This document shows positions 6,298-9,164 of a DNA stretch of 64,000 nucleotides, in pieces. Source of the stretch: Escherichia coli (GTDB taxonomy: Bacteria; Pseudomonadota; Gammaproteobacteria; Enterobacterales; Enterobacteriaceae). The notes under the pieces were generated by a model, which worked only from the letters and a program-made list of their open reading frames with translations, ran no database searches and was not told the origin of the DNA. How positions within the stretch are numbered: position 1 is the stretch's first letter; every line of letters starts with the position of its first letter. Where the stretch lies: assembly GCF_003334385.1 (NCBI RefSeq), contig NZ_QOWN01000013.1, one strand, 5' to 3'. A program made the translations under genes and the position numbers.

Positions 6298-9164
6298 ATG
6301 GGCATCAAACAACACAATGGGAATACCAAAGCAGATCGTCTCGCTGAATTAAAAATCCGTTCGCCCTCAATTCAACTGATAAAATTTGGCGCTATTGGTT
6401 TGAATGCAATTATCTTTTCCCCCCTGCTGATAGCTGCTGATACAGGAAGTCAATATGGCACCAATATTACTATTAATGATGGTGACAGAATTACAGGAGA
6501 TACCGCCGATCCATCAGGAAACCTCTATGGTGTAATGACCCCAGCAGGAAACACGCCTGGCAATATCAACCTGGGTAATGATGTCACCGTCAATGTCAAC
6601 GACGCCTCTGGATATGCAAAAGGAATCATTATTCAGGGCAAAAACAGCTCCCTGACAGCTAACCGACTCACAGTAGATGTTGTTGGTCAAACCTCTGCCA
6701 TCGGCATTAACTTAATTGGTGACTATACCCATGCTGACTTAGGCACAGGCAGCACCATTAAGAGTAACGATGACGGCATCATTATTGGGCATAGCTCAAC
6801 ACTAACAGCCACTCAATTCACCATTGAAAACTCGAACGGTATAGGCCTAACCATCAATGACTATGGCACCAGTGTCGATCTTGGAAGCGGAAGTAAAATC
6901 ACGACCGATGGAAGTACAGGTGTTTATATCGGTGGTCTCAACGGCAATAACGCCAATGGTGCTGCGCGTTTTACGGCTACAGACCTGACAATCGATGTTC
7001 AGGGCTACAGCGCCATGGGGATAAACGTACAGAAAAACTCTGTTGTCGATCTCGGAACAAACAGTACCATTAAAACCAATGGCGATAATGCTCACGGCCT
7101 CTGGAGCTTTGGCCAGGTTAGCGCGAATGCACTCACTGTTGATGTAACTGGAGCCGCGGCCAATGGCGTCGAAGTTCGTGGTGGTACAACCACTATCGGT
7201 GCAGATAGCCATATTTCTTCCGCGCAGGGCGGTGGCCTCGTCACCAGTGGTTCAGACGCGATAATCAATTTTACTGGCACGGCAGCGCAACGAAACAGCA
7301 TCTTTTCCGGCGGTTCTTATGGTGCCTCGGCCCAGACGGCAACGGCTGTTGTCAACATGCAAAATACCGATATTACAGTTGATCGTAATGGCAGTCTGGC
7401 GCTGGGTTTGTGGGCTCTCAGCGGCGGTAGAATAACCGGAGACAGTTTGGCTATCACCGGCGCGGCAGGAGCCAGGGGAATTTATGCCATGACCAACAGC
7501 CAGATCGACCTCACGAGCGATCTGGTCATTGATATGAGTACACCCGACCAGATGGCCATCGCAACGCAACATGACGATGGTTATGCCGCCAGCCGCATCA
7601 ACGCCTCGGGTCGTATGCTTATCAACGGTAGCGTTCTTTCCAAAGGTGGGCTAATCAATCTGGATATGCACCCTGGGTCGGTTTGGACAGGTTCCTCCCT
7701 CAGCGATAATGTCAATGGCGGAAAACTGGACGTTGCAATGAATAACAGCGTCTGGAACGTAACAAGTAATTCTAATCTCGACACGCTGGCGCTGAGCCAT
7801 TCAACTGTCGATTTTGCCAGCCACGGGTCAACTGCCGGCACATTTGCCACATTAAACGTAGAGAACCTGAGCGGTAACAGTACCTTTATTATGCGTGCTG
7901 ATGTTGTTGGCGAGGGTAATGGCGTTAATAATAAAGGGGATTTATTGAATATCAGCGGGAGTAGTGCTGGTAATCACGTATTGGCTATCCGCAACCAGGG
8001 CAGCGAGGCCACAACGGGAAATGAAGTTCTGACAGTGGTAAAAACCACTGACGGCGCGGCCTCGTTCAGCGCGTCTTCTCAGGTTGAGTTGGGGGGATAT
8101 CTGTACGATGTGCGTAAAAATGGCACTAACTGGGAGCTTTACGCTTCCGGGACAGTTCCGGAACCGACTCCTAATCCTGAACCCACACCAGCTCCCGCTC
8201 AGCCTCCCATAGTCAACCCCGATCCTACGCCTGAACCCGCTCCCACGCCTAAACCCACCACGACCGCAGATGCTGGCGGCAATTATCTCAATGTCGGTTA
8301 CTTATTGAACTATGTTGAAAACCGTACGCTGATGCAACGGATGGGTGACCTGCGAAATCAGAGTAAAGACGGTAATATCTGGTTGCGCAGTTATGGGGGA
8401 AGCCTGGACTCCTTTGCCAGTGGCAAACTGAGCGGCTTTGACATGGGTTACAGCGGTATCCAGTTTGGTGGGGATAAACGTCTCTCTGATGTAATGCCGT
8501 TGTATGTCGGTCTGTATATTGGCTCAACACATGCATCGCCGGACTATAGCGGAGGCGACGGTACCGCACGTTCAGACTACATGGGAATGTACGCCAGTTA
8601 CATGGCACAAAACGGTTTTTACAGCGATCTCGTTATAAAAGCATTGCGCCAGAAAAATAGTTTCCACGTACTGGACAGTCAGAACAACGGCGTTAACGCC
8701 AACAGCACTGCGAATGGAATGAGCATCTCCCTGGAAGCCGGGCAGAGGTTCAACCTGTCCCCTACTGGTTATGGGTTCTATATAGAGCCGCAAACCCAGC
8801 TTACATACAGCCACCAGAATGAGATGACTATGAAGGCGAGTAATGGCCTCAATATACATCTGAATCACTACGAATCGCTGCTGGGGCGTGCCAGCATGAT
8901 ACTGGGGTATGACATCACCGCAGCAACAGCCAGCTGAATGTCTATGTGAAGACTGGCGCTATCCGCGAGTTTTCAGGGGATACCGAATATCTGTTGAACA
9001 ACTCCCGGGAGAAGTACAGTTTCAAAGGTAATGGCTGGAATAACGGCGTGGGAGTCAGTGCACAGTATAACAAACAGCACACATTCTATCTCGAAGCGGA
9101 TTACACGCAGGGTAACCTCTTTGATCAGAAGCAAGTCAACGGAGGATATCGCTTCAGCTTTTAA
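6298..9164 (+). pseudogene. ycgV: AIDA-like autotransporter adhesin YcgV, reading frame broken by an apparent -1 frameshift near 8930
   Basis: 879-aa ORF 6298..8937 (extended signal peptide, passenger repeats, proline-rich linker PEPTPNPEPTPAP) stops at 8935-8937; the beta-barrel C-terminus ...GGYRFSF continues in another frame (8946..9164). Total span is 2867 nt, one base short of the 956 codons recalled for K-12 YcgV. Confidence 0.6.

Follow-up and report, generated by a model that had tools for sequence, protein, structure and literature searches.

The question raised by this locus is whether an Escherichia coli strain has lost the autotransporter adhesin gene ycgV, or only appears to have done so because one base is missing from its assembled sequence. 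We analyzed a 64,000-nt stretch of E. coli DNA (contig NZ_QOWN01000013.1, assembly GCF_003334385.1; hereafter the window), in which ycgV lies between ychF and dhaR, as it does in K-12. YcgV belongs to Group 4, together with self-associating, biofilm-forming autotransporters similar to Ag43 and AIDA-I, and has been linked to biofilm formation; there is no published structural study of it (PMC9289746). A sequence-only reading of the window had noted that the ycgV open reading frame (ORF) stops early and that a typical autotransporter C-terminus continues in another frame, and it proposed either a genuine inactivating mutation or a homopolymer sequencing error. Our analysis indicates, with a probability of roughly 0.93, that ycgV in the window is a pseudogene produced by a real, heritable one-base deletion in codon 876 (GGC), that the deletion belongs to a minor lineage of phylogroup A, and that the window carries a sub-variant of it with the substitutions S783L and G803S.

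Reading frames of ycgV and the missing base

The features of the locus are listed below with their window coordinates and strand.

6298..9164, + strand: ycgV pseudogene as a whole, 2867 nt against 2868 nt for the intact gene (from alignment with MG1655 ycgV, L001 1599-4466, WP_001334788.1)
6298..8937, + strand: truncated ORF of 879 aa, consisting of 875 native YcgV residues, four aberrant residues (A-T-A-S) and TGA 8935-8937; the native part holds the putative signal region, the beta-helical passenger with the Pertactin domain, a Pro/Thr linker and the first two thirds of the barrel
8645, + strand: C>T (S783L), restricted among carriers of the deletion to the window's sub-lineage; C in all other loci, deleted or intact
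8704, + strand: G>A (G803S), with the same restriction to the window's sub-lineage; G803 in all other loci, deleted or intact
8922..8924, + strand: deletion site; intact alleles have GG here (codon 876, GGC for Gly in K-12), the window a lone G at 8923 (from the alignments and the 91-mer census described below)
8925..9164, + strand: rest of the gene, out of frame, with coding capacity for the end of the barrel (native residues 877-955, NSQLNVYVKTGAIREF...GGYRFSF, then TAA), including the C-terminal aromatic motif
8946..9164, + strand: leftover ORF of 72 aa with a GTG start, annotated by some gene callers (P0001, on several contigs)

Read directly from the sequence, the 879-codon ORF that starts at ATG 6298 terminates at TGA 8935-8937 with the C-terminus ...DITAATAS, and the GGYRFSF motif occurs only out of frame, at 9141-9161. 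The -1 frame has a TGA at 8910-8912, is open from 8913 and ends at TAA 9162-9164; its translation includes ...NVYVKTGAIREF...GGYRFSF, ...HHRSNSQLNVYVKTGAIREF...GGYRFSF and ...SNSQLNVYVKTGAIREFSGDTEY...QVNGGYRFSF, each followed by the stop. Near the N-terminus, a hydrophobic stretch, FGAIGLNAIIFSPLLIAA, is found at residues 30-47 of the window ORF, and the sequence there is identical to that of K-12 YcgV.

The intact gene is 2868 nt long and encodes 955 aa plus the stop codon in an MG1655-derived record (WP_001334788.1, annotated as an autotransporter outer membrane beta-barrel domain-containing protein). Alignment with MG1655 placed the difference at a single G that is absent at 8922/8923, where GCAGGCAAC has become GCAGCAAC. 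K-12 reads ACC GCA GGC AAC, continuing AGC CAG CTG AAT, and the window reads ACC GCA G-C AAC, with one G of the GG pair gone. The sequence-only reading was therefore correct on the two frames and their limits, on the span of 2867 nt, which it had described as one nucleotide short of a 956-codon K-12 gene, and on the position of the shift, which it had confined to about 8913..8937.

When the G was re-inserted, the window sequence gave a 955-aa ORF with a single terminal stop, which differed from K-12 only at S783L and G803S (953/955 residues identical). The rest of the locus is intact, and 1 intergenic single-nucleotide polymorphism (SNP) separates the flanks from K-12 over 4700-10760. Every comparison genome aligned at the site has GG and an in-frame gene, and many of them carry an annotated ycgV without a frameshift flag. 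The locus thus shows what is expected of a frameshift pseudogene: it has intact orthologues, and the full ORF returns when its lesion, a defined indel, is repaired. The lesion site is a GG dinucleotide and not a homopolymer; the nearest runs are GGGG at 8883 and at 8904, and both are unaffected. The 72-aa leftover ORF is probably not expressed as a protein, because no Shine-Dalgarno-like motif was found in the 20 nt upstream of GTG 8946 and the ORF has no signal peptide.

Distribution and lineage of the deletion allele

The occurrence of the deletion was determined by a census of the 91-mer centered on the lesion site among the 3863 RefSeq complete genomes that hold this stretch. The 91-mer of one genome (~0.03%), that of SCU-104, was identical to the window; its ycgV has the same deletion and was annotated as "frameshifted" by the Prokaryotic Genome Annotation Pipeline (PGAP). 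Chance is not an issue in this comparison, because the window shows a defined one-base difference from the other 3862 genomes. As RefSeq already lists the identical allele as frameshifted, it is an ordinary, known pseudogene allele of a minor lineage. The sequence-only reading had held that its case would fall if reference alleles with the same sequence were annotated as intact; no identical allele annotated as an intact 955-aa gene was found.

Exact-protein look-ups extended this result beyond complete genomes. The 879-aa protein of the SCU-104 allele (P0016) matched exactly on 106 contigs and is indexed in 178 blocks; its records include KTE14 EOU68575.1, STM34419.1 and CAM6809483.1, as well as sequences from JGI, ENA and Logan, metagenome assemblies among them. 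The protein of the window's own allele (P0017, HAH1513527.1) matched exactly on 3 contigs, namely GCA_012504395.1 and the Logan assemblies of ERR1948963 and SRR3823653, and the window showed 0 differences from GCA_012504395.1 over 8.6 kb. We also checked the deletion at the DNA level, and the same G was missing from all 16 carrier loci fetched (16/16), which come from isolates and metagenomes and were independently assembled. Their record names suggest varied assembly pipelines, with SPAdes-style NODE contigs, k141 contigs, NCBI assemblies, a JGI metagenome and Logan assemblies. In the window assembly, the only other indel relative to SCU-104 is an A7/A8 run in ycgH, where the window is in the common state. 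Because the deletion recurs in SCU-104 and in 16 independent loci, its site is not a homopolymer, and the window has no other odd indel, we treat it as genuine: the ycgV deletion is a rare, heritable allele and not a sequencing error. Of the two possibilities raised by the sequence-only reading, the genuine mutation stood, whereas the homopolymer error failed on both counts, as the site is a GG dinucleotide and the deletion is shared.

SCU-104 has been assigned to phylogroup A, ST8125 (PMC11251922). It is a carrier distinct from the source of the window, because the two differ by 13 SNPs and 1 indel (A7/A8) over 63.4 kb and diverge completely after 63414, so that the last 586 nt of the window (63415-64000) are unaligned. 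A three-way comparison over 50 kb of the window and SCU-104, both with the deletion, and HH107, which is intact, gave a star with 6-7 private differences each and no conflicting site or homoplasy. On a parsimonious reading, the deletion would have arisen once on a common background of phylogroup A, and S783L and G803S would have been added later in the sub-lineage of the window. These 2 nonsynonymous changes, with 0 synonymous ones, fit relaxed constraint, although the numbers are too small for a test. Besides the pair in ycgV, the window has private SNPs relative to SCU-104, HH107 and SW070917 at 3533, 25971, 31771, 32683 and 35091, and the relation among these phylogroup A genomes is star-like here.

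Barrel truncation and competing explanations

Intact K-12 YcgV contains two Pfam domains, Pertactin (PF03212, residues 494-615, E 1.4e-37) and the Autotransporter beta-domain (PF03797, residues 694-935), and both families are also on record for the 879-aa product of the window. An end-to-end alignment was obtained between the last 288 aa of intact YcgV and the barrels in the crystal structures of BrkA (3qq2, E 1.6e-24) and EspP. In this alignment, the native frame is lost at query position 209/288, so the break lies inside the barrel and not at the junction of passenger and barrel; the residues missing from the window product correspond to the final ~80 of the BrkA and EspP barrels. The sequence-only reading had described the gene as split between the passenger and the C-terminus of the barrel. 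The frameshift itself was confirmed, but that placement was not, as the break is at residue 876/955, within the Pfam barrel (694-935).

Because the frame breaks after residue 875, the barrel of the product ends 80 residues early and has no terminal GGYRFSF. Compared with a type Va autotransporter, the gene retains a beta-helical, pertactin-type passenger (E 1.4e-37 for the K-12 allele), but the window ORF has neither the complete in-frame 12-stranded C-terminal barrel, since the native frame is left after residue 875, nor the C-terminal aromatic beta-signal (...GGYRFSF). Roughly four of the twelve barrel strands may be lost, as estimated from the alternating hydrophobic pattern.

Recognition and folding of an autotransporter barrel by the beta-barrel assembly machinery (BAM) need the C-terminal strands and the terminal aromatic beta-signal. 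Translation of the window allele would proceed through 875 native codons, add A-T-A-S and stop. An incomplete barrel of this kind, without the beta-signal, would not be assembled by BAM or inserted into the outer membrane; the adhesin passenger would then not be exported to the surface, and the truncated product would probably be degraded in the periplasm. The deletion is thus predicted to be a loss-of-function (null) allele without passenger secretion.

Several other explanations were weighed against this one. If the true genome has GG and an intact 955-aa gene, the missing base is a sequencing or assembly error. Indels of one base are the most frequent kind of assembly error, and few genomes carry the allele (1/3863 RefSeq complete genomes). 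We nevertheless consider an error very improbable, since it would have to explain the same deletion at a dinucleotide in 16 loci assembled independently by different projects and pipelines, the exact allele of the window (the deletion with S783L and G803S) in three other data sets (GCA_012504395.1, ERR1948963 and SRR3823653), and a window with no other unusual indel over 63 kb; this explanation is already largely refuted. It is also conceivable that full-length YcgV is sometimes still made, by a programmed -1 ribosomal frameshift, by transcriptional slippage or by phase variation. We give this practically no chance. In 8860-8950, all frames are free of slippery X XXY YYZ heptamers, and simple-sequence repeats are absent as well; the two GGGG runs (8883 and 8904), which precede the open overlap, are the only runs of at least three, so that neither a long homopolymer nor a short tandem repeat, as found at contingency loci, stands at the frame change. 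A change from GG to G has no appreciable rate of reversible slippage. The offset is not conserved either, because 3862/3863 genomes are without the allele of the window and the aligned comparison genomes are all in frame with GG. These observations count against recoding even though the native C-terminus would be regained by a -1 shift within 8913-8934, and against phase variation even though some bacterial adhesin genes are phase-variable via repeat tracts.

Another explanation accepts the lesion as real but not as neutral, so that it would recur through a mutational hot spot or through selected loss of surface YcgV in gut commensals. The loci we collected contain three other independent lesions within 35 nt: a deleted T (CTG to C-G) at window-equivalent 8935 in L014 (locus position ~3990), which gives an 883-aa product; a duplication of AG after 8931, with an additional upstream break, in L016 (locus position ~3985); and the end of an IS2 insertion sequence (IS) at window-equivalent ~8900 in L017 (380-475). 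We rejected this clustering as evidence for a hot spot. It is an ascertainment artefact, because the loci were baited by the 72-aa ORF, which exists only when a lesion lies in 8913-8945, after the stop at 8910-8912 and before GTG 8946. In favour of recurrence, the missing G is the only character that joins the window and SCU-104 over 50 kb, and ycgV has been reported among positively selected genes (PMC9110714). On the other hand, the SNP pattern is without homoplasy and fits a single origin, and the allele frequency is very low (1/3863). A hot spot or selection is accordingly improbable, and that the deletion and the other lesions within ~35 nt together reflect recurrent mutation, or positive selection for loss of surface YcgV in human-gut commensal E. 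coli, is quite improbable.

Damage to ycgV is found elsewhere as well. In L019, an insertion of 18 nt that keeps the frame lengthens the Pro/Thr linker (window-equivalent ~8240) on the background of the G deletion, which gives 885 aa, and the gene is disrupted by IS5, IS1 or IS3 in several other complete genomes. The 3-kb ycgV stretch has a match in ~4100 of 5426 RefSeq complete E. coli genomes and none in ~1300, at the sensitivity of megablast. YcgV is dispensable and its gene is often broken, and the loss of such genes is commonplace in E. coli.

Some points weigh against the interpretation of ycgV in the window as a pseudogene that arose once by deletion. An error in the window's own assembly is excluded solely through the identical allele in other assemblies. 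The single origin is only a parsimonious reading, and over 50 kb the missing G is the sole derived state common to the window and SCU-104. The loss of function is drawn from established autotransporter biology. A single-sequence AlphaFold model of the C-terminal 308 aa was unusable (mean predicted local distance difference test score, pLDDT, 30.2; predicted template modelling score, pTM, 0.18), so the number of strands lost is an estimate. Nevertheless, the pseudogene interpretation retains the high probability given at the outset.

For annotation, the appropriate label for ycgV of the window is frameshifted pseudogene; its ORFs of 879 and 72 aa are neither two separate genes nor an intact adhesin, and tools such as those for adhesin profiling should not treat them that way. 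As a lineage marker, the G deletion could indicate a rare phylogroup A clade, and S783L with G803S the sub-clade of the window. Otherwise, it is one more case of the frequent loss of autotransporter adhesin genes in E. coli and matters little beyond correct annotation.

Neighbouring features and known systems

Two other autotransporter loci are present in the window. A ycgH pseudogene at ~40001-42648 on the - strand is split into ORFs 40027-41061 and 41128-42648, and ycgH is annotated as "frameshifted; internal stop" by PGAP in both SCU-104 and HH107. The homopolymer in ycgH is A7 in the window (41750-41756), which is the common state (1456 records), versus A8 in SCU-104. The presence of this pseudogene in the same window shows that autotransporter genes routinely decay in E. 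coli. Between minE and ymgJ, at ~38342-38685 on the - strand, is the remnant of a third autotransporter beta-barrel, which is annotated in related genomes as frameshifted, incomplete and without its N-terminus.

At the 3' end, 63415-64000 departs from SCU-104 and K-12 in the last codons of potB, which read ...LLNKK ATEIDD and a stop, versus ...LLNKK VELE and a stop. An ORF of the YkgJ-family cysteine-cluster type follows the altered potB end at 63600-63902 on the + strand. A potB/YkgJ-family junction of this kind occurs in 88 RefSeq genomes, and SW070917 is 100% identical. Positions 63415-64000 resemble the end of an element inserted where potB and potC meet. At ~50250-51920, icd is followed directly by iraM, according to the colinear SCU-104 annotation, so the e14 prophage, which K-12 carries at icd, is absent there.

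Phase-variable adhesin genes and genes with a programmed -1 frameshift share with the ycgV locus only a one-base frame offset inside a surface-protein gene; they differ from it in that the site in the window lacks both a repeat tract and a slippery heptamer, and its offset is not conserved. Within the window, ycgH and ycgV are alike in that both are autotransporter genes disabled by a frameshift, with an additional internal stop in ycgH. The decay of ycgH does not look private to a lineage, as it is flagged in both annotated comparison genomes, whereas the ycgV deletion is confined to a rare lineage. SW070917 is 100% identical to the 3' end of the window but has IS4 in umuC and an intact ycgV. 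The closest counterpart is the ycgV pseudogene of SCU-104 (NZ_CP053284.1, HHJ22_RS09985), which has the same one-base deletion; it differs in keeping the K-12 residues S783 and G803, and SCU-104 lacks the apparent integrated element that the window has at potB. Compared with YcgV of K-12 (b1202, WP_001334788.1), a type Va autotransporter adhesin, the allele of the window is without one G in codon 876, gives an 879-aa product without the last 80 barrel residues and carries S783L and G803S; once the G is restored, it represents the same locus, with 953/955 identity.
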